64,000 nucleotides of DNA from a bacterium (GTDB lineage: Bacteria; Patescibacteriota; Minisyncoccia; Phycocordibacterales; UBA2100), in contig RFQR01000001.1 in NCBI GenBank assembly GCA_009924895.1, forward strand, positions 79,575 through 143,574, given 5' to 3'. The notes beneath the pieces were generated by a model that had not been told where the DNA came from, did not search any database, and saw nothing but the letters and a program-made list of their open reading frames with translations. How positions within the stretch are numbered: the first letter of the stretch is position 1; each line of letters starts with the position of its first letter. This document shows, one piece after another, positions 3,061-17,257 of the stretch. Made by a program: the position numbers and the translations under genes.

Positions 3061-3699
3061 TTACTCAAACCTCGTCAAAACTTTGTCCAAGATCTTGCTC
3101 CCACCTCCTGCCTCGAGCACTGCAGCATACAACGTCTCGAAGTTCGCTTTGTCTTTGTAAAATGCAAAGTCATGGCTCGCTCGCCGGATCTCTTCTCGGA
3201 GCGTTGTTGCACTCTCAAAATCCGCAACCTTGATGTTGTGCGCTACTGCCCACGATCGCAAAATCGGGAGATTGTTTTGCGCGATTAGTTCATTCGCAAG
3301 AGCAAGAGTGAATGCTAGCCGTCGATCGTCTGCGTTGAGGGTATTGAAATCTGATGTCTTGTTTGCCGTGTTTGGCGTTGTTGGGGCTTTCGGCGCGGAT
3401 GAGAAAATTGCCTCGCTTTTTGTGCTTTCAACGATCGTGAGGCCAGTATTCGGGCTTTGTGAGGGCATTATCGACGAGGGCGAGGTAACAGCAAACAGGA
3501 AAAAGAAAGCGAGAGCCGCAGTGCTGAAAATTGCCATTACATGCAGTCGAGATGGGGTGCGTAACCACGCGGGACGTATGAGACCGATCACAAGTCCTGC
3601 AAGAGAAAGTAAGGCGAGAGCCGCAAAGATGTTGTACATAGAAGTTCGCTTGATTGCTAAACAACCGTGCGAACTCTTTCCACACAAAAAGCCCGCCAC
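3061..3699 (-). CDS. Membrane-anchored hypothetical protein; the real start is probably the Met of MYNIFAALALL at about 3639
   Basis: A hydrophobic N-terminal helix is followed by a Ser/Thr/Pro-rich linker and a soluble domain. Confidence 0.45.
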   Translation of the reverse strand: MAGFLCGKSSHGCLAIKRTSMYNIFAALALLSLAGLVIGLIRPAWLRTPSRLHVMAIFSTAALAFFFLFAVTSPSSIMPSQSPNTGLTIVESTKSEAIFSSAPKAPTTPNTANKTSDFNTLNADDRRLAFTLALANELIAQNNLPILRSWAVAHNIKVADFESATTLREEIRRASHDFAFYKDKANFETLYAAVLEAGGGSKILDKVLTRFE

Positions 3700-3704: not shown

Positions 3705-3921
3705 ACGGCTTGCGCCGTACGCACCAGTTTCCCGGTGCGGCAGAACATGCGACCTCATGACGGGTTCTTTATGCATGTTCTGCCTCCCACAACCATGCCG
3801 AGTCGTTGTTCGATTCGGTTTAGGTCGCCGCCCTTCCGGGCCGATATTTAGTTGTTCTTACATCGTACAGGATTTTTGCGATTTACTCCACTTCGTCGCT
3901 GATTTCCGCTATGATCACTAT

Positions 3922-5601
3922 ATGCAACTCAACACCCCTGCCGACCTCCTCGCGGCACTCAAAGATCTCCACACTCCCATCAATGACCAAGCCTCGATCA
4001 AGGAATATCGCTACGTTGTTTACATCCGAAAATCCACGGATCAAGAGGAAAAACAGGTGCGCTCACTGGCCGACCAGATACTCGAATGCAAAGAATATGC
4101 CGAGCGCGTAGGTATCACGATCCGCGACGAAGACATCGTGCAAGAAGCAGAATCTGCGAAAGAGCCGGATATCCGACCCAAGTTCCGCAAGATGATCAAA
4201 GACATCCAAGAGAAGGGTAAATACGACGGCATCCTCGCATGGCATCCCGATCGCTTGGCCCGCAACATGAAAGATGCGGGAGAAATCATCGACCTTCTCG
4301 ACAAGGGCACGATCAAGGATCTCAAGTTCGTGAGTTTTTCGTTTGAGAAAACAACCGCGGGCAAAATGCTCCTCGGCATCATGTTCGTTATGTCCAAAGA
4401 GTACAGCGACAAACTTTCCGACGACGTATCACGCGGGAACAAGCGGAGCATCGAGGAAGGCAAATACATCAACAAAAACAAACATGGCTATTTCAAGGAC
4501 GCGAATCAGCACATGCAGCCCGACGGCGAAAACTTCCTTTTGATCAAGCAAGCGTTCCGTATGCGCGTCGAGGGTAAGACGATGAAAGAAATATCGGAGT
4601 TTTTGAACACAAATCACTACATGAAATGGCACACAAGCAAACCTCGCGCGATATTCAAGTGGAATCCACAGACGATTGAAAAGACACTCAAAGATCCCTC
4701 ATACACCGGAATCGTCATGTACGGAAAATCCCATCGGGTAGCATTCGTGAATCTAATCGATGCGTACGGATTCCAACCGATGATCTCGGTGTCGGAGTTC
4801 ATGCAAATCAACAAACTTACACATGAAAAACAACTTTTCAAACTTGCTCGAAAGTATCGCAAGGGTGAAGACGTGAAAGCCGATCTCATGCGCGGCATGG
4901 TGATCTGCGACGGGTGCGGCGAGGCCATGACCGCAAGTATCACGCCCAAGAAAACACCACACGGCGTTACGCGCTATTTCTACTACCGCTGCGAATCAGA
5001 GGATTGCGAACGAAAACCACGATCGATTCGCGCAAAAGTCGTGCTCGCTCACATATTCGATTTTCTCGACACGCATCCGTTCTCCACGAAGGAAGCGTAC
5101 GAACATTATGCAAAAGAGATGGAGCGTGTGGCTGCCGAGCGCAATCGTACTGCTCAACAACTCTCACAGACACTCCGCCTCGAAAGAGGCCGGATTGAGG
5201 ATCACTTGATCACAACGAAAGAGTACTTGATCGAAGAAAAGGACGAAACGATCAAAAAATCATACAAGAGTGATGTGCTTCGCTACGAGGCCCGGATCAA
5301 AGAACTCAAGGGCGAGATCGAGAAAGCGCAGACCGTCGTAGCACGTCAAAAGGCCGCGATTCTGACATACGAAAACTTCCTCGAACTCATGGAAAAAATG
5401 CCTAAAATCCTACGTTCTATGCAGAATATGCAGGAGATGGATTTCCTGATCCGCAAAATCTACACGAACTTTACAATCGAGGGAAAAAACGTAGCAAAAT
5501 CAACGCTTTCTGCGCCATTCGATGCGCTTTACACCCTCAAAATCTCAAACGGTGGGCGCGGGGAGACTCGAACTCCCAAGCCTTTCGGCACACGCTTCTG
5601 A
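3922..5601 (+). CDS. Large serine recombinase (resolvase/invertase-type catalytic domain plus recombinase, zinc-ribbon and coiled-coil C-terminal region)
   Basis: MQLNTPADLL...YRYVVYIRKSTDQEEKQVRSLADQ shows the catalytic Ser motif. A Cys cluster (CDGCGE...CESEDC) and a long coiled coil are present. The track ORF begins earlier, but the Met at 3922 fits the domain start. The last roughly 16 codons lie inside the tRNA-Leu gene. Confidence 0.9.
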   Translation: MQLNTPADLLAALKDLHTPINDQASIKEYRYVVYIRKSTDQEEKQVRSLADQILECKEYAERVGITIRDEDIVQEAESAKEPDIRPKFRKMIKDIQEKGKYDGILAWHPDRLARNMKDAGEIIDLLDKGTIKDLKFVSFSFEKTTAGKMLLGIMFVMSKEYSDKLSDDVSRGNKRSIEEGKYINKNKHGYFKDANQHMQPDGENFLLIKQAFRMRVEGKTMKEISEFLNTNHYMKWHTSKPRAIFKWNPQTIEKTLKDPSYTGIVMYGKSHRVAFVNLIDAYGFQPMISVSEFMQINKLTHEKQLFKLARKYRKGEDVKADLMRGMVICDGCGEAMTASITPKKTPHGVTRYFYYRCESEDCERKPRSIRAKVVLAHIFDFLDTHPFSTKEAYEHYAKEMERVAAERNRTAQQLSQTLRLERGRIEDHLITTKEYLIEEKDETIKKSYKSDVLRYEARIKELKGEIEKAQTVVARQKAAILTYENFLELMEKMPKILRSMQNMQEMDFLIRKIYTNFTIEGKNVAKSTLSAPFDALYTLKISNGGRGETRTPKPFGTRF

Positions 5602-5634
5602 GACGTGAACGGTTACCAATTTCGCCACGCGCCC
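5553..5634 (-). tRNA. tRNA-Leu (anticodon CAG), type II with a long variable arm
   Basis: The reverse complement folds as a cloverleaf. The acceptor stem is GGGCGCG/CGCGCCC with discriminator A. There is a 3-bp D-stem with a GG loop. The anticodon stem CACGT/GCGTG carries the loop CU-CAG-AA. The variable stem-loop is GCC-GAAA-GGC. The T-arm is GGGAG-TTCGAGT-CTCCC. Confidence 0.9.
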
Positions 5635-5894: not shown

Positions 5895-8113
5895 CGCGAG
5901 AACCAGGAGCGAATCCATTGGGTAATACGCGAGAGGAATGAATCAGGTACGGCATTTACCGCAGTTGCTGTCTGTTCGAGGGGTGGTGTTTCTGGAGATG
6001 CGACAGGTTGTGTTTGAACCACTTTTAATTTTTTCTGTACGGCAAGTTTCTTTCCAATTTTTTTAGGAATAACCAGATTCGTTGATGACGCTACGGACGA
6101 GGTGCTTGATGCCGCTCCTACGAGAGGAGTGCTTGTTGCATCTTCTGGTGACGTAGTTGCGATTGCCAGATTTGCTGTGACAATCGTTGACGTGGTAGTG
6201 CTGGTCGCCATGGTTATGACTGGTGAGGTACTCGATACTGGTGTTCCGCCACCCCCTACAGCTACAGGAATCGGAAACGTCTGCAATACGGTGATCCAGC
6301 TACGGCCCGATGCTGCGGTCAAGGCATAACTCGTACTCCAGAGACGATTATCAACGCTGTCAGTTGTAGGACGAACCCCGCCATCAGGTTGTTGCGCAGC
6401 AGCAAGTGCGTCTTTCGGCAATGCACCGGTAGAAGTTTTCCAGGCGCTTTCGGGCGACGCGTGCGCTTCGCTAAAGGAGTTCAAAGCGGTCATGACCCAG
6501 CTCGTTGAATCGATGTTCCCCCAGCCGCCATCACTGTTTTGTACTGATTTAAGGTAACCAATCGATTTCCCGAGTCCTCTGTTTACTCCCGGCACCGCAA
6601 AAAGAGCGCCAAGCGCCTGTGTCGCCGCCGCAGTAACGTCGGGACTATTTTCCCATGAGCCGTTCGGACTTTGCTTTGAGAGTACGAACGCTGCAACTTT
6701 TTGAATAATGTCGTCGTTTTGAGTGTAACCTGCGTGTTCGAGCACGATGAGTCCGAAAATATCGTCGTTCACGAGTGATGGATCGCCGATTTGTGTACCA
6801 TCAAATGCAGCAATGATTGGTTTTATAACGTTGCGCGTAGACCCTTTGTAGGGGTCAATACCGAGTGCCATAAGTGCCATCGCATGACGCATATAGTCTG
6901 TCACACTCCCAAAATCACTATCGGGTTGCGGATTGAGCATAAATGCTTTGATTGCATCAGTTGGGCCTCTGTTTGCCGCAATACCGATTGCCGCCCAATC
7001 TGAATATAGTAGTGATCCAAACGAACCGTTTTGCTTTTGCTTGCTTGAAAGAAAGGCAAGTGCACCTGGTACATCAAATACCTTGGGCCCACTTGTTCCA
7101 GCAGGTGTTCCACCGCCGCCTGTTGCCTGAGACACCATGAGAGGAGTATTGGGAAAGTAGCCAGTATTTTGAATACCGGCGGCATAGGTGCCAGCAATAT
7201 TCACGATAACGGTTGCCACGCCGTTTGTATCAGTTGTTGAGGTTGCGAACTCGGTGGCGATAAAATTGCTATCGAACTGCACTACACCCACGACTTCATT
7301 CGGTGCAGGAACGTACGTGCCAGTTGCAGGATCGTACCGTTTAGCGGTGATAGTGACTGACTGTCCGGTTTGTATGCTTGAAACCGAGGTGGTGACTTGC
7401 CACGGTGATCCAAAAATGAGATAGACGGTGTCATTACCAGAAACGGTGTACGAGTCAATACCAACAGATGGAAATGTGTTGTTTACCGCATACGTCCAGT
7501 TGTTGCAATCAGGTGAAGTGGTTGCGGTAAAAGTAATACAGTTGAGGAGAAACGAACTAAAAGATGGGTAGTACTGAAGATCGCTCACCGCGAAACTGCT
7601 GTCAGTGGTATCGAGTGATGAGAGAAGCGCCAACACACTGCGCGCAGGTACGTTGTATGTGGTCGTAGTTCCTGTTGGAGTGATAGATACATCTGGTGTG
7701 GTAGTCCCTGGAAGTGTAAGAGTCACTGGCCCTACCGTCTGAGAGCTGCCACGGATGGTCAATGTGACAGTCTCTGGTGTAGGCACAGGTGGTGTGTTGT
7801 CGACAATGATAACGAGTGAGGATGTAGTAGTGCTGTTACCAGATACGTCTGTTGCGGTCCAAGTAACGGTAGTGGTACCAACAGGGAAAGTAGTAGGTGA
7901 GTAGGTAACTGTTGGATTTGGGTCAGTATCATCGGTTGCAGTTGCAGGTACTAAAAGTGGCGAAGCAGGAAAGGTGCTGGTGGCGAAGGTCTGGTCAGCA
8001 GGCGCTGTTATGGTCGGTGCGGTTGTGTCTGGGGTCGGTACTGGAAGGGCATGCGCTGATGGTGAGTATAAAAAGGGAAGGACAATAAGGACACTCAGTA
8101 GTATTTTTTTCAT
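5891..8113 (-). CDS. Secreted surface protein with an N-terminal HYR-like domain, prenyltransferase/alpha-alpha-toroid repeats and a Thr-rich C-terminal region
   Basis: A signal peptide (MKKILLSVLIVLPFL) is present. TVTWTATDVSGN is HYR-like. Repeated QxxDGGWG-type motifs occur (LSKQSPNGSWEN, VQNSDGGWGN, QQPDGGVRP). Confidence 0.7.
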   Translation of the reverse strand: MKKILLSVLIVLPFLYSPSAHALPVPTPDTTAPTITAPADQTFATSTFPASPLLVPATATDDTDPNPTVTYSPTTFPVGTTTVTWTATDVSGNSTTTSSLVIIVDNTPPVPTPETVTLTIRGSSQTVGPVTLTLPGTTTPDVSITPTGTTTTYNVPARSVLALLSSLDTTDSSFAVSDLQYYPSFSSFLLNCITFTATTSPDCNNWTYAVNNTFPSVGIDSYTVSGNDTVYLIFGSPWQVTTSVSSIQTGQSVTITAKRYDPATGTYVPAPNEVVGVVQFDSNFIATEFATSTTDTNGVATVIVNIAGTYAAGIQNTGYFPNTPLMVSQATGGGGTPAGTSGPKVFDVPGALAFLSSKQKQNGSFGSLLYSDWAAIGIAANRGPTDAIKAFMLNPQPDSDFGSVTDYMRHAMALMALGIDPYKGSTRNVIKPIIAAFDGTQIGDPSLVNDDIFGLIVLEHAGYTQNDDIIQKVAAFVLSKQSPNGSWENSPDVTAAATQALGALFAVPGVNRGLGKSIGYLKSVQNSDGGWGNIDSTSWVMTALNSFSEAHASPESAWKTSTGALPKDALAAAQQPDGGVRPTTDSVDNRLWSTSYALTAASGRSWITVLQTFPIPVAVGGGGTPVSSTSPVITMATSTTTSTIVTANLAIATTSPEDATSTPLVGAASSTSSVASSTNLVIPKKIGKKLAVQKKLKVVQTQPVASPETPPLEQTATAVNAVPDSFLSRITQWIRSWFSR

Positions 8114-8870: not shown

Positions 8871-9617
8871 ATGATTGGTCTCTTCGATTCGGGCTGCGGT
8901 GGGCTCACTGTGTTGCGTGCTATTCGCGCACGTGCTCCTCAAGTAGATATTGTGTATTTCGGCGACATACGAAATGCCCCTTATGGTTCTAAATCACAGA
9001 AAGAACTCGAACGATTAACCAAAAATGGCATACAAGTATTGCAGTCTTTTGGTGCGAAGGACGTGGTGAGTGCTTGCAACAGTGCCTCCACCTCATTTTT
9101 GGAAGGTGCGACGCGCGGGCGATTTGTGGAAATGACGCGACCGACCGCACGCGCGATGCGACTTCTCGCAGGGGCGCGCGTGCTTCTCTTAGCGACTGAA
9201 GCCACGGTGAAATCGGGTATTTATAATGATGCACTCGATCCGATCGTTTCGCTGACGCCACTCCCTGCAGCACTGCTTGCTAGTTCTATTGAAAATGGGG
9301 AAGATAATGCCGAAATAAGCCGCATTGTCTCGACTCTTTTTGACATCGTGGCGCGTAAAAAGTTTGATGCGGTCTTGCTTGCCTGTACTCACTATCCGTT
9401 GGTTCGTGACGTTATCCAGAATGAGGTCGATGCGCGATGGGGGCATATTCCGGTTCTTGATCCCGCTGATGCGGTAGCTGAGGAAGTGGTGGAACGTTTC
9501 CCAATCGCTGGGGGCGGGAAGACCACCTTCTATATTTCAAAAGAGAGCGCACCGTTCCAGCGATTGGTTCGTCGCCTTTTTGGCGCAAGGAAGTATGCTG
9601 TAGAGGTAGTGTCTTGA
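8871..9617 (+). CDS. murI: Glutamate racemase
   Basis: MIGLFDSGCGGLTVL matches the Asp/Glu racemase N-terminal motif, and a second catalytic-Cys region LLACTHYPL is present. Confidence 0.85.
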   Translation: MIGLFDSGCGGLTVLRAIRARAPQVDIVYFGDIRNAPYGSKSQKELERLTKNGIQVLQSFGAKDVVSACNSASTSFLEGATRGRFVEMTRPTARAMRLLAGARVLLLATEATVKSGIYNDALDPIVSLTPLPAALLASSIENGEDNAEISRIVSTLFDIVARKKFDAVLLACTHYPLVRDVIQNEVDARWGHIPVLDPADAVAEEVVERFPIAGGGKTTFYISKESAPFQRLVRRLFGARKYAVEVVS

Positions 9618-9642
9618 CACAAAAATAGTATATTATACTATG
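9614..9642 (+). promoter_or_regulatory. Promoter overlapping a perfect 15-bp palindrome, a likely operator for the toxin-antitoxin pair
   Basis: TTGACA at 9614-9619 is followed 16 nt later by TACTAT. The palindrome tagtata-t-tatacta at 9626-9640 overlaps the spacer and the -10 element. Confidence 0.5.
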
Positions 9643-9662
9643 TATGTATTATATTGTAATAC

Positions 9663-9899
9663 GTGCATACTATGCGCAACGTAACCATTCCGCTCCCAAA
9701 AGACCTGCTTGCATACCTCGATGAACAGGTGGCATCTCATCAGGCAGATACACGCGCAGGGCTGATTCGTCGCATTATCGCGCAGCACCGCGAGAATGAG
9801 CTTGTTACCGTATGGCGTCAGGCACAGGAAGAGCGTCGAGCGGGAAAGACAGTACGTGGCAATCTGCGTGACATCCTAAAAGTATTTCCAACTGAATAG
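9663..9899 (+). CDS. Ribbon-helix-helix (CopG/ParD-like) antitoxin
   Basis: VTIPLPKDLLAYLDEQVA....AGLIRRII is a typical RHH N-terminus. It sits immediately upstream of a RelE/ParE-like gene. Confidence 0.7.
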   Translation: MHTMRNVTIPLPKDLLAYLDEQVASHQADTRAGLIRRIIAQHRENELVTVWRQAQEERRAGKTVRGNLRDILKVFPTE

Positions 9900-9906
9900 T
9901 TGCACT

Positions 9907-10164
9907 ATGGGAATTGTATTCACGACTCGTTTTTTGCGTTTAGTGAAGAAGATGAGCGTGAAAGAGCAGAAAAAAGTCTTGAAACTAGTTGAAATATTTG
10001 AGAAAAATCCTAAAGATCGTTCGCTCAAAGTTCATAAATTACAGGGCAAACTTGCGGGAGCTTTTGCGCTCTCAGTAGAGTATGATGTACGTATACTCTT
10101 CAGTGTTGAAGATGATGAAATTCTCTTTTTCGATATCGGCTCACACGATGATGTGTATAGATGA
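9907..10164 (+). CDS. RelE/ParE-family type II toxin
   Basis: KVHKLQGKLAGAFALSVEYDVRILFSVEDDEILFFDIGSHDDVY matches the RelE/ParE core. The stop overlaps the murD start as ATGA. Confidence 0.75.
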   Translation: MGIVFTTRFLRLVKKMSVKEQKKVLKLVEIFEKNPKDRSLKVHKLQGKLAGAFALSVEYDVRILFSVEDDEILFFDIGSHDDVYR

Positions 10165-11480
10165 TTATGAACTACCACGATTTTTTTTCAGGCAAAAAAG
10201 TAACCCTCATGGGTTTGGGGCTTCTTGGGCGTGGAGTAGGGGATGCTCAGTTTTTACTTGAGCAAGGAGCGGAAGTTTTGGTGACTGACACAAAAACAGA
10301 ATCAGAATTGAGTGAATCATTGGCTCAACTTGAGGGAGAAAAAAACGTATCGTTTCGTCTTGGTGGGCATGACACCCTCGATTTTATTGATACCGATATG
10401 GTGATAAAAGGGGCGGGGGTTCCTCTCAACTCTACCTACATTACCGATGCAAAACGCGCTGGCATACCGGTATACATGTCTACTGCTCTTGCGGCACAAT
10501 TTGCGCGAGAAATGGGCGTGAAGATTGTTGGCGTGACGGGCACGCGCGGAAAAAGTACGGTGACTCAGATGATTGTTCATGTTCTCAAACAATCAGGTCA
10601 TCGTGCACATGTAGGAGGAAATGTGCGCGGTGTTTCAACGCTCGCGCTGTTACCGCAGCTCAAGAAGGGAGATATTCTCGTTCTTGAGCTTGATTCATGG
10701 CAGCTGCAAGGCTTTGGCGACTTGAAGATAAGTCCTGATGTGTCAGTATTTACTAATTTGATGCCCGATCATCAAAACTATTACCTAAATCTCGACGTAT
10801 ATTTTGAAGATAAAGCAAAAATATTTTCACATCAAAAATCAAGCGACATTTTTATCTGCGCTAGGGGGATATTCGAAAAGGTAAAAGCGGCTCATCCACC
10901 GGTCGTGCCTCGTATCCCTGCGCCACTTCCTGATTCATGGGTAGTACGGGTACCGGGCATGCACAATCGTGAAAATGCGGCTTTTGCTGTAGAAGCGCTC
11001 CGCGCGCTTGGTGTATCAGAAGAGGAGATACAGAAGGGTCTCGAGTCATTTGAAGGAGTGGAAGGAAGGCTTCAGTTTGTAAAAGAAATTCGCGGCATCA
11101 AAATCTATAACGACAATAATTCCACAACACCAGAAGCAACAATCGCGGCGCTCAAGGCACTCGACCATGAAAAGAAAAATATCATTTTGATTGCTGGCGG
11201 GTCTGATAAAGGGCTCGATATGAGCGCGCTCTTATACGAAATCGCACACACCTGTAAACGCGTGATTTTGCTTGCGGGGAAGGGTACCGACCGCGTTGTG
11301 CCGTTTATGCAAGACTACTCAATTTTTGATTCACTCGAAGCTGCAGTACATGAAGCAGTACGCGCGGCGCAGCCAGGGGATGTGGTTCTTTTCAGCCCGG
11401 CGTTTGCATCGTTTGGCATGTTTAAAAATGAATACGAGAGGAATGACCGATTCTTGCAAATAATGAAAGATGTGACATAA
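10161..11480 (+). CDS. murD: UDP-N-acetylmuramoylalanine--D-glutamate ligase
   Basis: An N-terminal Rossmann motif (LGLLGRGVG), the Mur ligase P-loop GTRGKST and the C-terminal Mur ligase domain are all present. Confidence 0.9.
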   Translation: MIMNYHDFFSGKKVTLMGLGLLGRGVGDAQFLLEQGAEVLVTDTKTESELSESLAQLEGEKNVSFRLGGHDTLDFIDTDMVIKGAGVPLNSTYITDAKRAGIPVYMSTALAAQFAREMGVKIVGVTGTRGKSTVTQMIVHVLKQSGHRAHVGGNVRGVSTLALLPQLKKGDILVLELDSWQLQGFGDLKISPDVSVFTNLMPDHQNYYLNLDVYFEDKAKIFSHQKSSDIFICARGIFEKVKAAHPPVVPRIPAPLPDSWVVRVPGMHNRENAAFAVEALRALGVSEEEIQKGLESFEGVEGRLQFVKEIRGIKIYNDNNSTTPEATIAALKALDHEKKNIILIAGGSDKGLDMSALLYEIAHTCKRVILLAGKGTDRVVPFMQDYSIFDSLEAAVHEAVRAAQPGDVVLFSPAFASFGMFKNEYERNDRFLQIMKDVT

Positions 11481-11540
11481 TTTGGCGAGCCTTGGCATCC
11501 CGCCAAGAGCCTTGAAAAGGAGCTGACCATGTGACAGGAC

Positions 11541-12044
11541 ATGCTCGGAATCGTTGCGGATTTCACGACGAAATTGCGCACAGGAGCAATTACGCCAGAA
11601 GAAGCAAAGCGTTTTTTGCGGCGCGAAGACCCCTTTGCCCCACAAACCGCGGGCACCTTCAACCCCGCCACCTTCATCGGTAAAAACTGGGACATCATCG
11701 GCGAGCATAAATCCCTCCCCGAAGGATGGAACCCCTCTTTACTCAAGACAGTCTGCCCCCTCAAAAAGTGCGAGTCGTACCTCAACGGGAACGAATGGAA
11801 GAAACGCCTCGAAGGCACCAGCCTCCTCGGCGTGGAAGCCTTCTGGCTCTGCTGGAACAATCAAGAGCAGATTCCCGCAGAGCTGAAAGACAAGATCATC
11901 TTCTTCGACGGAGATGAGCTGCGCGGTCCGGACGACGATCGGTACTCGTTGTGCCTCAACTGGCACGGTGGACGGTGGGACTGGAGCTTCGACTGGCTCG
12001 GCGACAGCCGTAACGCGAGCTACGTCTCTGCGTGTGCAGGTTAG
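11541..12044 (+). CDS. Hypothetical Trp-rich protein encoded by a GC-rich, probably foreign segment
   Basis: The reading frame has a consistent high-GC3 codon bias and the segment GC is well above its neighbours. No known motif was recognised. Overlapping ORFs in other frames were judged to be shadows. Confidence 0.5.
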   Translation: MLGIVADFTTKLRTGAITPEEAKRFLRREDPFAPQTAGTFNPATFIGKNWDIIGEHKSLPEGWNPSLLKTVCPLKKCESYLNGNEWKKRLEGTSLLGVEAFWLCWNNQEQIPAELKDKIIFFDGDELRGPDDDRYSLCLNWHGGRWDWSFDWLGDSRNASYVSACAG

Positions 12045-12093
12045 CACTGAGAGCTAAAACCCTCAGCACTGCACTTGGATGCTTTGAACTTTG

Positions 12094-12124
12094 CCCCCAC
12101 CAAACTATCGGTGGGGGATTTTGT
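12094..12124 (+). terminator. Intrinsic terminator
   Basis: The hairpin cccccacc-aaactatc-ggtggggg is followed by attttgtt. Confidence 0.55.
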
Positions 12125-12155
12125 TACACTTACAAACGGTAGTAGGCGATTATGA

Positions 12156-12554
12156 ATGAGATTACGATTTCATTCTGCCTCAATCCAGTATCTGCACAAA
12201 CAGAATGGGTGCGATTTTCGATATGTAAATGATTTTGTTATTCTTTCCCGTAACCGTACCGAACTCGAAATGCTACTGCACCCCTTGGAATATTTTCTAA
12301 AAGAAAGACTTAAACTACTGCTTCATCAAAACAAGGTTTCAATTCGCACTCTTGCCTCAGGTGTTGATTTCCTGGGATGGGTACATTTTCCCGATCATCG
12401 AGTACTGAGAAGTCCCACCAGACGCAGGCTTATCAAGTTCTGTGCTAATAAAAGCGTAGATGACCCCTCTGTTATCTCATACCGTGGTCTCTTAAGGCAT
12501 GGCAACGGGCACAGGATAGCGCTTCGTATTTCTGGGTACGACGGAGTATACTGA
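12156..12554 (+). pseudogene. Reverse-transcriptase fragment from a group II intron, retron or DGR-like RT, covering motifs 5-7 and a short thumb only, with YVND in place of YADD
   Basis: FRYVNDFVILSRNRTELEMLLHPLEYFLKERLKLLLHQNKVSIRTLASGVDFLGWVHF aligns with RT motif 5 (YADD), motif 6 and motif 7 (FLGY). There is no room upstream for motifs 1-4. The block is AT-rich. Confidence 0.7.
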
Positions 12555-12618
12555 CAAAGATGGCAAAACAGTTTGATGATTGGAATCGTAAAAAACAAAA
12601 ATTGATGAACGAACTAAT

Positions 12619-12945
12619 GTGCTTTTGTACCACACGCGCGAGGTATGGTGGGTGCATCTTGGACTCAATGTTGGTTTTGAACAAGACGGTATGGGAGAAT
12701 ATTATAAACGCCCGGTACTTATTCTTCGTGGGTTGAGTCGGAATGTGTGCATTATTATTCCGCTTACGACGTCGGAAAAAAGAAATATGTTTTATGTTGA
12801 TGCTGGTGTAGTTGCTGGCAAGTCAGCTGCCGCCATTATTTCTCAAATCCGATTGATTGATACAAAACGTCTTGTAGAAAAGATTGCTACTATGCCAGTA
12901 AAAGAGTTTGAAGTTATACGAAAATCGGTCAGAGATTTACTCTGA
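12619..12945 (+). CDS. MazF/PemK/EndoA-family toxin (mRNA interferase), with a GTG start and no evident cognate antitoxin
   Basis: REVWWVHLGLNVGFEQDG..KRPVLIL...IIIPLTT...IRLIDTKRLVEKIATM aligns with the EndoA/MazF core motifs. Confidence 0.75.
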   Translation: MLLYHTREVWWVHLGLNVGFEQDGMGEYYKRPVLILRGLSRNVCIIIPLTTSEKRNMFYVDAGVVAGKSAAAIISQIRLIDTKRLVEKIATMPVKEFEVIRKSVRDLL

Positions 12946-13009
12946 CCGATTTTCGGTATTGTTGCCTTCAGGTTATCCTGAAGGGGAGGCCGAAGCCATT
13001 TGCATTTGT

Positions 13010-14383
13010 ATGATACACCTAACAACACAAAAGTCAAGTCTACCGGTCCACATACATATGGTAGGGATTGGTGGCGTTGGCATGTCCGCGCTTGCCCAGC
13101 TTCTTGTCTCGCGTGGTGTTTCTATAACTGGGTCAGATAGGTCTGAATCACCAACAACCGAACTCCTTTCTCGAAAGGGAATCGTGGTATCAATTGGGCA
13201 TGATGGATGTCTCATTCCGGCAAATACTGAAATGGTTATTTATAGCGATGCGGTGTGGCCGGATAATCCAGAGCGAATGCGTGCAGTGGAGATGAAGATT
13301 CCACAAATTTCGTATTTTGAAGGACTTGCTCGCGCAACGGTAGGCATGCGCACTGTTGCAGTTGCAGGTACACACGGCAAGACAACTACGACCGGCATGC
13401 TCGCCAAGATTTTGATTGATGCAGGTGTGTCTCCGACGGTAATCGTCGGTTCTATTGTGCGTGATTTCGATCCACACTTGCCCAAAGGTGAGATCGGCCG
13501 AACAAATTTGCAAAGCAAATCTGTTTTAGGCTCGAACTTTGTAAAAGGAAAGTCAGATATATGCGTCGTGGAAGCGTGCGAATATCGTGATCATCTCCTC
13601 GAACTCAGTCCTGAAGTATTGGTGATTACCAACATCGAACTTGATCATACTGATTTTTTCCCCTCACTCTCTGCGCTTCAAAACACGTTTCGTACTGCAG
13701 TAGAGAAAGTGCCACGAACTGGCGCTATTGTGACAAATCAAAACGACCCCCACATAAAGCCCGTTCTTGAACACGCACAAGCGCGCATTGTTGATTACAC
13801 ACAAATGGCAGTAGGGAGTCTTTTATTGCCGGGAGAGTTTAATCGAGAGAACGCACGTGCAGCGCTTGCTGCGGCGCACATTGTTGCCCCAAAGCTTTCG
13901 CTTGAAGCCGGCGTTCACTCGCTCTCACAATTTAAAGGTTCATGGAGACGCTTTGAATATAAAGGAGAGATGAAAAGTGGCGTGCAAGTGTATGACGATT
14001 ATGCACACCATCCCACTGCGGTTGAAAAAACCATCGCTGCTGCTCGCGAGAAATTCCCTGGCAAAAAAGTGGTGGTTGCATTTCATCCGCACCTCTTTTC
14101 GCGCACTCGTGATTTTATGGACGAGTTTGCACAAGCGCTTTCAGGAGCCAATGAAATACTCCTTGCTCCGATTTTCCCTGCGCGTGAGAAACCAATTGAA
14201 GGAATAACCAGCGAGGTACTCGCAGAAAAGATTGTTGCTCTCGGTACTTCTGCAAAAGCATTTACAACCTTACATAACATGTACGACTACTGTGTCGATG
14301 CGAATTGGAACGATGATACTGTGCTGTTGACTATGGGTGCGGGAGATATCTACAAAGTCGCAGAACAACTAACAGAAGAATAG
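13010..14383 (+). CDS. murC: UDP-N-acetylmuramate--L-alanine ligase
   Basis: HIHMVGIGGVGMSALAQ, the P-loop AGTHGKTTTTGML and the Mur ligase middle and C-terminal domains are present. The start was chosen at MIHLTT, whereas the track ORF starts at 12908. Confidence 0.9.
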   Translation: MIHLTTQKSSLPVHIHMVGIGGVGMSALAQLLVSRGVSITGSDRSESPTTELLSRKGIVVSIGHDGCLIPANTEMVIYSDAVWPDNPERMRAVEMKIPQISYFEGLARATVGMRTVAVAGTHGKTTTTGMLAKILIDAGVSPTVIVGSIVRDFDPHLPKGEIGRTNLQSKSVLGSNFVKGKSDICVVEACEYRDHLLELSPEVLVITNIELDHTDFFPSLSALQNTFRTAVEKVPRTGAIVTNQNDPHIKPVLEHAQARIVDYTQMAVGSLLLPGEFNRENARAALAAAHIVAPKLSLEAGVHSLSQFKGSWRRFEYKGEMKSGVQVYDDYAHHPTAVEKTIAAAREKFPGKKVVVAFHPHLFSRTRDFMDEFAQALSGANEILLAPIFPAREKPIEGITSEVLAEKIVALGTSAKAFTTLHNMYDYCVDANWNDDTVLLTMGAGDIYKVAEQLTEE

Positions 14384-14385
14384 GT

Positions 14386-15069
14386 ATGGGAAAACTCTCA
14401 ATCGTTGCGACACCGATAGGAAATCTTGAAGACATCACGCTGCGTGCTCTACGGACTCTCAAAGAGAGCGATGTGATTTATGCCGAAGACACCCGTGTGA
14501 TTACCAAACTTCTCGCAAAGTATGAAATTGAAAAACCATTGCAAAGGCTCGATGCTGCCTTGGAAGGAAAACGAATCGAAGAAGTAATTGAGCGCATTAA
14601 TACGGGGGAGAAGGTTGTGTATGTTTCCGATGCGGGTACGCCAGGAATTTCTGATCCCGGAGCACGGCTGGTGGCAGGTGCGCGAGAGGCAGGAGTAACC
14701 ATCGAAGCAATTCCAGGTCCGTCGGCGCTCACGGCGCTTCTGTCTATTGCAGGTCTTTCATCTGACGAATTTGTGTTCGTTGGCTTTTTGCCGCACAAAA
14801 AAGGCCGCCAAACCGCAATAAAAGAGATGGTCTCTTGTGCTCGACCGACGATTCTCTACGAATCACCACACCGCATTGTGAAGTTTCTTGAAGAGCTTGC
14901 AGTGTATGACATGTTTGCCCGAGTCACTATTGGTCGTGAGCTCACAAAAATGTTCGAAGAAGTGCTTGTTGGTACCCCTTCCGAACTTGGTACGCTTCTC
15001 AAAAAGGGGAAAAAAGAACGCGGAGAATTTGCTGTTATTGTTGAACCTTCAATAACCGTTAAAAAATAG
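14386..15069 (+). CDS. rsmI: 16S rRNA (cytidine1402-2'-O)-methyltransferase (tetrapyrrole-methylase fold)
   Basis: LSIVATPIGNLEDITLRALRTLKESDVIYAEDTR and the overall length are typical of RsmI. Confidence 0.85.
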   Translation: MGKLSIVATPIGNLEDITLRALRTLKESDVIYAEDTRVITKLLAKYEIEKPLQRLDAALEGKRIEEVIERINTGEKVVYVSDAGTPGISDPGARLVAGAREAGVTIEAIPGPSALTALLSIAGLSSDEFVFVGFLPHKKGRQTAIKEMVSCARPTILYESPHRIVKFLEELAVYDMFARVTIGRELTKMFEEVLVGTPSELGTLLKKGKKERGEFAVIVEPSITVKK

Positions 15070-15361: not shown

Positions 15362-17257
15362 ATGTCTGAATACGTCGACGATCCTCGGCGAATAACCTAT
15401 TTTGCCTCCACGCATACCCGCGGCAAACGTGAGATGTTTGGCATCCGCGCTGATGATCGTGGCAAGCACATGTATGTCATCGGGAAAACCGGTATGGGTA
15501 AATCAACCATGCTTGAAAATCTTGCGATTCAAGACATACAAAATGGGGAAGGGCTGGCATTTATCGATCCACACGGTTCGACTGCAGAAAAGCTGCTCGA
15601 CTTTGTCCCGCATGACCGCATCAAAGATGTCCTCTATTTAGCACCATTTGATGTCGATAATCCAATTGGGTTTAATGTGATGGAGGACGTGGGGTATGAC
15701 AAGCGACACCTCGTCGTGTCAGGCCTGATGGGTGCATTCAAGCGTATTTGGGTTGATGCGTGGAGTGCGCGCATGGAATACATCTTGAGTAACACCATGC
15801 TCGCGCTTTTGGAATATCCGGGCGCGACACTCCTTGATGTGAACCGCATGCTCACCAACAAAAATTTTCGTGCTGCGGTGATTGAGAAAATAACCGATCC
15901 AGTCGTGCGCGATTTCTGGACCGTCGAGTTTGCAACTTATACTGACCGCTATACGCAAGAGGCAACGCCGGCGATTCAAAACAAAATCGGTGCGTTTACC
16001 GCAAACCCACTTATTCGCAACATAGTTGGACAACCAAAATCGTCGTTTGATGTTCGAAAAATGATGGATGAAAGAAAAATTCTCATCATCAATCTTTCAA
16101 AGGGGCGCATGGGTGAACAGAATGCATCACTCTTAGGTTCGATGCTGGTGGTAAAGATTTATCTCGCGGCGATGAGTCGCGCTGATGAACCGTATGTGCG
16201 TATGCAGAAGCTACCGCGCTTCTTCCTCTTTGTCGACGAATTTCAGTCGATGATGAACGATGCCTTTGCTGATATTTTGTCTGAAGCCCGCAAATATAAA
16301 CTCGCGTTAACGCTTGCAAACCAATATATCGAGCAGATGGAAGAGAAGGTTCGTGATGCGGTCTTTGGTAACGTTGGTACCCTCATTACATTTCGTGTTG
16401 GCCCGTTTGACGCAGAAGTGTTAAAGACAGTGTTTGAGCCGACTTTTTTTGCAGAGGATTTGGTTGAGCTCGGTTTAGGACAAATCTACCTCACGCTCAT
16501 GATTGATGGTGTTGGGTCACCGCCGTTTTCTGCAGAAACGATTCCGCCGATCGAAGCGCCGAACATCTCGTACCGAAATGATGTCGTGATTTCTTCGCGC
16601 GAAAACTATTCTCGTCCTCGCGCTGATATTGAGAGAAGTATCACTGAGCGACTACAAGAATTTTTACCGCCGCCTCCGCAAAAGAAGGCAAACTCATGGT
16701 CAAACGCACCGTCTAAGAATACTCAGCCGCCTCGATCACAAGCTTCTGCTCCGAAACCCCCGCCAGAAAGACCACTTCGGGAAGAACGAAAAGAAAAACC
16801 ACGTGATGTGCGTCCGCCGCAAGAAGTACAGAGATTTCCAGAACCACGAGTCTCTGTTGAACATGCGCCACGATTTATTCAGCAGCCGCATGTCGCACAC
16901 CCGACTGTGGTCCAAGAGCGCCCTGCGCCAAAACCAGTACGTCCATTCGAAGTCCGCCCTCAACAGCCCGTTTCTGCGTTTGCAGCACAAAAAAATGAAT
17001 TGCGGGATGCGCTCAATCAGTACCAGAGTACTGCCGCACCGAAAGAGTCTCCCGCCGATCTTTTGCGATCAAAACTCAAAACAAAAGTACGCGAGCAGGA
17101 AATTGAAGCCGGCAACCGGGAGACGTCTCGTCCCTACAATACATCACCACAATCTGCAAAGACACGCTCAGAGGAGCCCACTCGAGCGCCAGAGGGTCCA
17201 CGTGATGATATTCCTAATGAGTTTCTACAACGCTTACTCAAGGGAGGTGATCTATGA
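15362..17257 (+). CDS. TraD/VirD4-like (type IV coupling protein-like, HerA/FtsK superfamily) P-loop ATPase. It is soluble and carries a long Pro/Gln-rich C-terminal tail
   Basis: Walker A is VIGKTGMGKST and Walker B-like is FFLFVDEFQ. There are no N-terminal TM helices. The C-terminus PPPPQKKANSW...PPRSQASAPKPPPERP is low complexity. The start was chosen at MSEYVDD rather than at the long track ORF. Confidence 0.7.
   Translation: MSEYVDDPRRITYFASTHTRGKREMFGIRADDRGKHMYVIGKTGMGKSTMLENLAIQDIQNGEGLAFIDPHGSTAEKLLDFVPHDRIKDVLYLAPFDVDNPIGFNVMEDVGYDKRHLVVSGLMGAFKRIWVDAWSARMEYILSNTMLALLEYPGATLLDVNRMLTNKNFRAAVIEKITDPVVRDFWTVEFATYTDRYTQEATPAIQNKIGAFTANPLIRNIVGQPKSSFDVRKMMDERKILIINLSKGRMGEQNASLLGSMLVVKIYLAAMSRADEPYVRMQKLPRFFLFVDEFQSMMNDAFADILSEARKYKLALTLANQYIEQMEEKVRDAVFGNVGTLITFRVGPFDAEVLKTVFEPTFFAEDLVELGLGQIYLTLMIDGVGSPPFSAETIPPIEAPNISYRNDVVISSRENYSRPRADIERSITERLQEFLPPPPQKKANSWSNAPSKNTQPPRSQASAPKPPPERPLREERKEKPRDVRPPQEVQRFPEPRVSVEHAPRFIQQPHVAHPTVVQERPAPKPVRPFEVRPQQPVSAFAAQKNELRDALNQYQSTAAPKESPADLLRSKLKTKVREQEIEAGNRETSRPYNTSPQSAKTRSEEPTRAPEGPRDDIPNEFLQRLLKGGDL

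Follow-up and report, generated by a model that had tools for sequence, protein, structure and literature searches.

Probable remains of a diversity-generating retroelement beside a frameshifted solitary MazF gene between murD and murC in a Patescibacteria genome

The segment between murD and murC on contig RFQR01000001.1 of a Patescibacteria genome (assembly GCA_009924895.1) comprises 1,577 nt and holds three open reading frames (ORFs). It was analysed as part of a window of 64,000 nt (64 kb; positions 79,575 to 143,574 of the contig), to which all coordinates without a locus name refer. Very probably the segment contains a dead diversity-generating retroelement (DGR) of the Patescibacteria and, independent of it, a frameshifted gene for a solitary MazF toxin. 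All three genes are damaged, and what is seen here is ordinary gene decay and no new system. In a working DGR, the reverse transcriptase (RT) and Avd copy the RNA of a template repeat (TR) inaccurately at its adenines, and the resulting cDNA replaces the variable region (VR) of a target gene. The element between murD and murC has neither TR nor avd and lacks the N-terminal two thirds of its RT; as it is, it could not work on its own. An initial annotation of this DNA had described the three ORFs as a GC-rich orphan gene, a truncated RT and an orphan MazF-like toxin. All three ORFs are present, and the homologies are far above chance for the RT stub, for the profile of the target and for the repaired MazF.

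The second of the three ORFs (12156-12554, forward strand, 132 aa) is a chimera. Codons 1-21 come from what was non-coding spacer, and codons 22-132 (12219-12551) are the tail of an RT, equivalent to RT residues ~213-313, i. e. motifs 5-7 plus the thumb. When a full-length RT of the family was compared with the window by tblastn, residues 213-313 were found at 12219-12521 with 60% identity (E 1.5e-34), and of the residues before 213 nothing was found in any frame. Thus the RT had rightly been called truncated and devoid of its N-terminal half, and no frameshifted N-terminus lies upstream. This search, like those for the TR and avd, covered the whole 64 kb, taken from a contig that is no shorter than 156 kb. 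The ATG of the 132-aa ORF lies at a site that is ATTATGAATGAG in the window but AATACGCGGGCG in intact elements. This ATG in decayed spacer makes the RT tail resemble a gene of 132 aa.

For comparison with solved structures, a full-length RT was composed by joining two homologues. Its best match in the PDB was chain 8ub7_A (328 aa, E 4.6e-40), with group II intron RTs next at ~1e-19, and in the alignment with the composite RT 8ub7_A has Asp at positions 138, 215 and 216. Since these numbers equal those of the catalytic aspartates published for the RT of the Bordetella phage DGR (bRT; D138, D215 and D216; bioRxiv 10.1101/2023.10.23.563531), we identify 8ub7_A, by its residue numbering, as presumably bRT. 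The window has YVND at 12222-12233 where the family reads YADD; the codons at the junction are CGA TAT GTA AAT GAT (RYVND). The Asn takes the place of D215 of bRT, the middle one of the three catalytic aspartates, as the initial annotation had proposed from the YADD box. The first catalytic Asp (motif 3) and motifs 1-4 are absent. Hence the window RT does not have the complete catalytic core of motif 3 Asp, motif 4 (I/L)GxxxSQ and motif 5 YxDD.

Apart from this box the RT tail is well preserved. Among the columns that are at least 95% conserved in 79 intact RTs, only the A to V and D to N changes of YADD were found in the RT-homologous part; four further changes at such columns all lie within the non-homologous first 21 codons. 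Of the C-terminal columns conserved to at least 80%, the stub retains ~88%, compared with a mean of 95% and a minimum of 86% in intact RTs. General profiles recognised the stub only in part. RVT_1 matched with profile positions 150-203 of 205 (E 0.0037, under the gathering score), TIGR04416 (group II intron RT) with positions 204-271 of 353 (E 2e-8, 33.6 bits; cut-off 300) and PADLOC RT_UG4 with E 8e-9 and 33 bits; further partial PADLOC matches were RT_UG17, Drt4 and Drt8. All these matches are restricted to motifs 5-7 and are far under the cut-offs of the families.

Homologues of the RT stub exist in hundreds in Patescibacteria. RT relatives are encoded in at least 594 loci (one genome per species), of which the best 80 are all full length (310-320 aa). 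A family of 'mini-RTs', in which all homologues of the stub would be short, was ruled out by the abundance of full-length genes in genome DNA. One short database protein, P0027 (126 aa), turned out to be a piece of a full-length RT gene (L176:3434-4354, residues 1-312 in one frame) where an ORF on the antisense strand had been called in preference to the RT N-terminus. In this DGR clade, many 'short RT' entries may be gene-calling artefacts of this kind.

The longer RT homologues contain GLPLGNLTSQ, which we take to be the DGR hallmark (I/L)GxxxSQ. In 64 of 81 loci the RT is preceded by a pair of repeats of 94-147 nt whose mismatches lie to 80% or more, and often entirely, on adenines of the RT-proximal copy; in the loci without such a pair the RT mostly lies near a contig end. 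In 75 of 75 loci having avd, this gene is on the strand opposite to the RT, and in all 75 it lies between TR and RT and is divergent from the RT (e. g. L082:5540-5929, minus strand); in locus L041 it matched the bAvd family of Pfam. The order of intact elements is target with 3' VR, terminator hairpin, promoter and spacer, TR, avd on the opposite strand, RT. About 330 nt of spacer precede the TR, including a structured spacer RNA of ~230 nt. Several metagenome-assembled genomes (MAGs) hold two DGRs of the same clade (e. g. L003/L010 and L007/L018). The DGRs of the candidate phyla radiation were reportedly first surveyed by Paul et al. in 2017. The architecture found here matches 'DGR clade 2', which is restricted to Patescibacteria and has targets without recognisable domains (Roux et al. 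2021, PMC8144416). On these comparisons, the RT fragment of the window falls into a clade in which the intact RTs are those of DGRs. The RT had been assigned to a retron, a group II intron or an element of the abortive-infection type; by RT family and TR/VR pairs it comes from a DGR instead. The notion of a graveyard of an RT-associated element proved apt, as target, start of the spacer and RT tail remain.

The DGR of Bordetella phage BPP-1 (bRT, Avd, TR and mtd) provides the best solved relative of the family RT, with all three aspartates aligned, and has the adenine-directed logic of TR-to-VR copying in common with the Patescibacteria clade. The arrangement is different. In BPP-1 the order is avd-TR-brt, whereas in the Patescibacteria clade avd is 3' of the TR and divergent from the RT. 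Therefore the region upstream of the TR is a dedicated structured spacer and not avd mRNA as in BPP-1. The target family of BPP-1 also differs from that of the window.

The first ORF (11541-12044, forward strand) encodes the target, or variable protein, of the DGR, with 167 aa as now read from Met5. It had no match in Pfam, NCBIfam or PADLOC. With a profile made from its six close homologues (46-59% identity), 1,666 cluster representatives were found, in which the domain is at the C-terminus of proteins of 140-230 aa. Hence the gene is not an orphan but a DGR target with a large family. Like the targets of the Patescibacteria DGRs, the protein is small and has no recognisable domain and a C-terminal VR. 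Relatives of the target occur ~1 kb 5' of the RT in 14 of 80 DGR loci (tblastn), and their last 40 residues match again on the TR. Homologue P0127 lies in L002; the final 121 nt of this target recur 460 nt downstream with 87% identity, and all 16 mismatches coincide with adenines of the downstream copy, the TR. In the alignment of the family, residues of the framework that do not vary (S, L, L, W, W, R, S, A) stand between hypervariable C-terminal positions.

The former VR of the window, now without a template, is at 11915-12041 (forward strand) and is homologous to the VRs of L002 and L082, which differ from their TRs only or mainly at TR adenines. Compared with the TRs of these two loci, the window VR (last 130 nt) is identical at 68-71% of the non-A sites and at 39-42% of the TR-A sites. 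The contrast between the two classes of sites is the trace left by earlier diversification directed at adenines. Neither a repeat finder (seeds of 7-10 nt) nor a custom scan tolerating mismatches at adenines of the candidate TR detected a TR-like copy of the VR in 11400-13000 or in the 64-kb window; the best adenine-tolerant match had 38 non-A mismatches in 127 nt. An AlphaFold model of the target had a pLDDT of 80 (>82 from residue 51 onward). Its Foldseek matches were weak and mostly C-type lectin domains (best E 0.04, TM-scores 0.3-0.4), which weakly suggests the C-type lectin fold expected of DGR targets.

At its 5' end the target gene carries a nonsense codon. A Shine-Dalgarno sequence GGAG (11519-11522) is followed by ATG (11529-11531) and directly by TGA (11532-11534, codon 2), all on the forward strand. 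The window reads ATG TGA CAG GAC ATG where the DNA of locus L001 reads ATG TCA CAG GAC ATG, and the target homologues start with MSQDM or MSHDM. Due to the stop at ancestral codon 2, the 167-aa ORF begins at ancestral Met5. The sole good Shine-Dalgarno sequence (GGAG, 6 nt 5') serves the first ATG, not Met5. L001 itself has a homologue of the target without RT or TR, which is flanked by direct repeats of 42 nt (2870-2911 and 3643-3684, 86% identical), each holding a G+C-rich palindrome; a PemK-family gene of 128 aa lies 1.5 kb upstream of it on the opposite strand.

The target ORF has a GC content of 56.7%, a GC content at third codon positions (GC3) of 71.4% and 9 Trp, compared with 48.3% GC for the whole window and 34-48% GC3 for the neighbouring genes. 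In 16 of 16 intact loci examined, too, the target was richer in GC than the rest of the locus (47-65% in the last 500 nt of the target, 39-57% in the locus, 61-74% in the VRs). The excess is 5-18 percentage points (e. g. L082, L015, L072) and extends across the last 500 nt, beyond the VR and its depletion of adenines alone. GC-richness is a trait of the target family. The initial annotation had described the product as unlike any neighbour; since high GC typifies the target family, it does not point to a foreign source, and a recent horizontal origin is not needed as the cause.

The target is followed by a terminator region (12082-12125, forward strand), which consists of the motif CTTTGAACTTTG (12082-12093), a hairpin (12094-12117) and a T-run. 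According to a terminator scan, the hairpin has 8 pairs, 7 of them G-C, and a loop of 8 nt; the strong hairpin noted earlier behind the GC-rich ORF is thus confirmed. The order of motif, hairpin and T-run after the VR was seen in 13 related DGR loci. Motifs like CTTTGA(A/C)CTTTG stand between target stop and terminator in most related DGR loci, sometimes in 2-3 copies (window 12082-12093, L002 ~5285-5297, L054 ~5135-5160). This motif might act in cis in homing, or a protein might bind to it.

The 5' remnant of the spacer RNA is at 12126-12218 (forward strand). It comprises a promoter-like TACACT (-10-like), AAACGGTAGTAGGCGA at 12134-12149, the hairpin P1 and the 5' strand of the hairpin P2. 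P1 has the stem 12154-12159/12170-12175 on the forward strand and the loop GATTACGATT. Its stem GAATGA/TCATTC differs from the canonical GCGGG/CCCGC in a compensated manner, such that the pairing is kept. In intact elements, the spacer RNA lies in the ~230 nt 5' of each TR (L003-L082; e. g. L064:5207-5451) and is predicted to form two hairpins with GATTACGG-type loops. RNAalifold gave a common fold for 26 intact loci with 43 pairs, 34 of them with compensatory changes. No Rfam family matched this RNA.

Between 12045 and ~12216 the window aligns colinearly with VR-to-TR spacers from 7 intact DGRs (alignment A4). The features in common are, in this order, a CTTTGAACTTTG motif, the terminator hairpin with its T-run, a -10-like box, AAACGGTAGTAGGCGA and a hairpin with the loop GATTACG. 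About 12216-12219, inside the loop of P2, the spacer switches to RT codon ~213. On this alignment and the covarying fold, the DNA between target and RT stub is the beginning of a VR-to-TR spacer, with P1 retained and the break in the P2 loop. The retained spacer is ~90 nt long, and ~1.3 kb are missing compared with the intact layout: the TR and avd, ~150 nt of spacer and 212 codons of the RT. A tblastn search of the 64-kb window with the L082 Avd as query gave no match better than E 0.14. At the junction there are short similar strings, ATTNCG in the spacer loop and ATTCGATATGC in the RT; the case for microhomology is too weak to claim.

A possible course of events is the following. The ancestral DGR would have consisted of target with VR, terminator, spacer, TR, opposite-strand avd and RT. 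A single deletion, starting in the P2 loop and ending at RT codon ~212, would have removed the remainder of the spacer, both TR and avd, and the fingers and palm of the RT with the first catalytic Asp. What remained would be the target with a frozen VR, the terminator, ~90 nt of spacer and the RT tail. Point decay would then have changed YADD to YVND and created the stop at ancestral codon 2 of the target. The solitary PemK/MazF gene of 128 aa would have broken separately by losing one A. After these events probably none of the three products is functional.

The window is not the only locus of this kind. C-terminal RT stubs were also found in L002 (residues 212-313, 6022-6354), L174 (183-313, 3965-4375) and L177 (168-316, 3959-4420); the corresponding stub of the window is 12219-12554. 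The four loci are unrelated. In each of them the stub is an open frame retaining 88-96% of the conserved columns, and the region 5' of the RT plus the N-terminal part of the RT, up to residues 168-213, is gone. The breakpoints of L002 and the window are one codon apart, and the two proteins are only ~50% identical. In L002 avd is without its first 16 residues, and in L174 the stub abuts a partial TR. The target with its VR is kept in three of the stub loci (window, L002 and L174). There is a slight chance that such stubs are not plain junk, i. e. that the thumb fragment and/or the frozen target is selected or that targets without RT are served in trans by a second DGR.

The third gene is a frameshifted member of the PemK/MazF family (12560-12945, forward strand, stop codon 12943-12945) with an intact length of 128 aa. 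The ORF at 12619-12945 matched PemK_toxin (PF02452) with an E of 6e-10, exceeding the gathering score. Among solved structures, EndoA/YdcE of B. subtilis is closest to the family (E 7e-8 with a family profile). The initial annotation had rightly seen a MazF/PemK homologue but had read this gene as starting with GTG and overlapped out of frame by a small ORF. This small ORF (12560-12736), which starts MAKQFDDWNRKKQK, is the 5' end of the MazF gene itself, and the GTG start is an artefact of the frameshift. When the two ORFs were joined across the A-run 12590-12601, a protein of 128 aa resulted. The lesion, the third point lesion of the locus, is the loss of one A in the A-run 12597-12601: the window reads CAAAAATTG, and CAAAAAATTG would restore the frame. 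The repaired MazF aligned over 100% of its length with homologues of 127-132 aa (up to 69% identity; E 8e-53 with intact relatives). Its sole better match (2.8e-63) was the same truncated 108-aa call as the window copy. The out-of-frame N-terminus has M1, K3, F5 and W8, which hardly vary in the family.

Alignment with EndoA/YdcE begins only at profile position 24. Hence the first ~23 residues are an N-terminal extension specific to this family (M.KDFD.WN..KK). R51, P52 and T70 do not vary across the family alignment. The Arg of RPV and the Thr of PLTT are presumably the catalytic positions (R25 and T48 in EndoA, R29 and T52 in E. coli MazF). The PemK fold is, by sequence, common to the window family, EndoA/YdcE (4mdx, 1ne8) and E. 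coli MazF, whereas the extension and the lack of an adjacent MazE-type gene set the window family apart from the latter two. The subfamily is widespread in Patescibacteria, with at least 552 metagenome loci, 412 protein clusters and members of 127-132 aa (L084-L093, L094-L173). A perfect palindrome of 16 bp, CGAAAATCGGTCAGAG...CTCTGACCGATTTTCG, spans the mazF stop (12919-12955, forward strand; terminator scan). It may be a terminator, although it is far longer than a typical terminator stem.

There is no MazE-like ORF before the toxin gene in the window, as had been seen before; compared with MazEF systems, the window copy is frameshifted and without an adjacent co-oriented antitoxin gene. We surveyed the same-strand ORFs abutting the MazF gene in 90 loci with ~75 distinct contexts. 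No neighbouring ORF recurred in the ~75 distinct loci. A conserved adjacent antitoxin was ruled out, as the abutting ORFs formed clusters only among syntenic near-relatives. Where gene calls were available, the contexts, three in number and unrelated to each other, were topA/RNase R, LemA/TPM phosphatase and two giant proteins, with no small partner, and in several loci housekeeping genes directly abut the gene. Solo toxins are common in large toxin families (Makarova et al. 2009, PMC2701414). Like the window family, such toxins, for instance MazF of Myxococcus xanthus, have no neighbouring cognate antitoxin. The initial annotation had asked what neutralises the toxin. Locally this question is largely moot because the gene is frameshifted and its family has no conserved adjacent partner. 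The further suggestion that the toxin was carried by the RT element did not hold. In 80 RT-anchored DGR loci not a single member of the MazF family was found, and MazF was ruled out as a part of the DGR.

Several observations count against this explanation or limit its support. The target ORF is intact from Met5 and retains all framework residues of its family. Thus the target may still be expressed. The RT tail runs without interruption to its natural stop, and its column retention, though low, is inside the range of intact RTs. Hence either the truncation is recent or the RT tail is under some constraint. A trans-acting DGR with the cognate TR may exist elsewhere in the genome, outside the searched 64 kb. 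The C-type lectin fold of the target is backed only by the weak matches given above. Finally, the Logan contig L083, a separate assembly identical to the window across 20.3 kb, may share reads with it and then lends little independent support to frameshift and nonsense codon.

The first of these observations could mean that the locus is partly functional, the target being diversified in trans or target and RT thumb being kept for a new role, with MazF made from the GTG or by slippage. We regard this as improbable. It would agree with the intact target ORF and terminator, with the conserved thumb residues in an open frame and with the 108-aa MazF ORF, which spans the whole PemK domain. Trans action is also compatible with L002, where VR and TR differ only at adenines despite a truncated RT in cis, and with the MAGs that have two DGRs of the clade. 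Yet neither a TR nor avd nor another RT lies in the 64 kb, and the target no longer has a start coupled to a Shine-Dalgarno sequence. As to MazF, the internal GTG, from which at most a product of 108 aa could start, has no Shine-Dalgarno sequence either. Programmed -1 frameshifting was rejected, since the A-runs are out of phase for a slippery site X XXY YYZ and TAA (12589-12591) stands just upstream in the -1 frame; in addition, the 128-aa relatives are all single ORFs.

Alternatively, the DGR could be intact in the organism, and truncation, nonsense codon and frameshift could result from mis-assembly at a repeated or hypervariable site and from homopolymer error. The members of a population differ in their DGR loci, which can cause assemblies to break, the mazF lesion sits in an A-run, and some 'short RT' database proteins are artefacts, as seen with L176. 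However, no repeat at the junction could collapse an assembly, and the retained spacer and the YADD box bear independent point changes, as decay predicts. The sequence of 20.3 kb, including the frameshift, is identical in the Logan assembly, and the 108-aa product is carried by five contigs. A5/A6 runs are short for systematic Illumina errors, and comparable RT stubs exist in other long contigs. We consider an artefact very unlikely.

That the locus represents the remains of a retron, a group II intron or an abortive-infection or defence RT with MazF as its effector can practically be discarded: the MazF gene does adjoin the RT stub and there are partial, sub-threshold matches to TIGR04416, RT_UG4, RT_UG17, Drt4 and Drt8, but these span only the generic region of motifs 5-7, the relatives of full length are RTs from DGRs that have TR/VR pairs and Avd, the DNA 5' of the stub aligns colinearly with the spacer of DGRs, the MazF family is missing from the RT-anchored loci and occupies unrelated housekeeping contexts, and an Rfam scan of 9000-15000 at E<=1 gave four chance-level matches (miRNA, snoRNA, sRNA) and neither the msr/msd RNA of retrons nor domain V/VI of group II introns, for which the initial annotation had suggested looking.

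Thus decay of a Patescibacteria DGR beside an unrelated, broken MazF gene best describes the segment. The RT tail, the target and the colinear series of motif, terminator and spacer start tie the window to the intact elements, from which it differs in the lack of TR, avd and two thirds of the RT, in YVND and in the damaged start of the target.

The surroundings contain further accessory genes. murD (10161-11480) forms the upstream flank of the segment. murC most likely starts at 13058, according to the gene call in L083; in its longest ORF the Mur_ligase domain begins at residue 48. Directly 5' of murD there is an apparently intact pair of a ribbon-helix-helix (RHH) antitoxin and a YafQ-RelE-type toxin (9663-10164), the toxin ORF of which overlaps the start of murD by 4 nt. 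Together with the insertions between murD and murC, the murI-murD-murC neighbourhood is thus the site of three small accessory insertions. A gene for a large serine recombinase (608 aa, 3775-5601, with Resolvase/Recombinase domains; called in L083) overlaps at its end an opposite-strand tRNA-Leu(CAG) gene (5551-5634). This overlap may be the edge of an integrated element. A gene for a TrwB/VirD4-like coupling protein (631 aa, 15362-17257; called in L083) lies 2 kb 3' of murC.

A DGR at this position is not unique. L041, from a distant MAG (MurD 36% identical) and the sole murD-bearing locus among those fetched, has an intact DGR of the same RT clade within the dcw cluster (L041:463-11428). There the order is mraY-murD-ftsW-[DGR]-murG-patatin-murC-murB, with the DGR between ftsW and murG. 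The target of this DGR belongs to a different family from that of the window.

The locus itself is of little weight. It illustrates step by step how a DGR may die, by loss from spacer to RT followed by point decay, and of how annotation can make debris look like an 'orphan gene', a 'mini RT' or a 'GTG-initiated orphan toxin'. As the targets of the Patescibacteria DGRs are consistently above genome GC, their GC-richness should not be taken as recent transfer. The widespread MazF subfamily of 128 aa with its N-terminal extension had no conserved adjacent partner in the ~75 loci examined. The set of loci used for comparison is more useful than the locus. It reveals a fixed architecture of Patescibacteria DGRs with divergent avd and a covarying RNA outside Rfam, and by analogy this spacer RNA is a candidate for the role that RNA segments binding bRT-Avd have in the Bordetella system.

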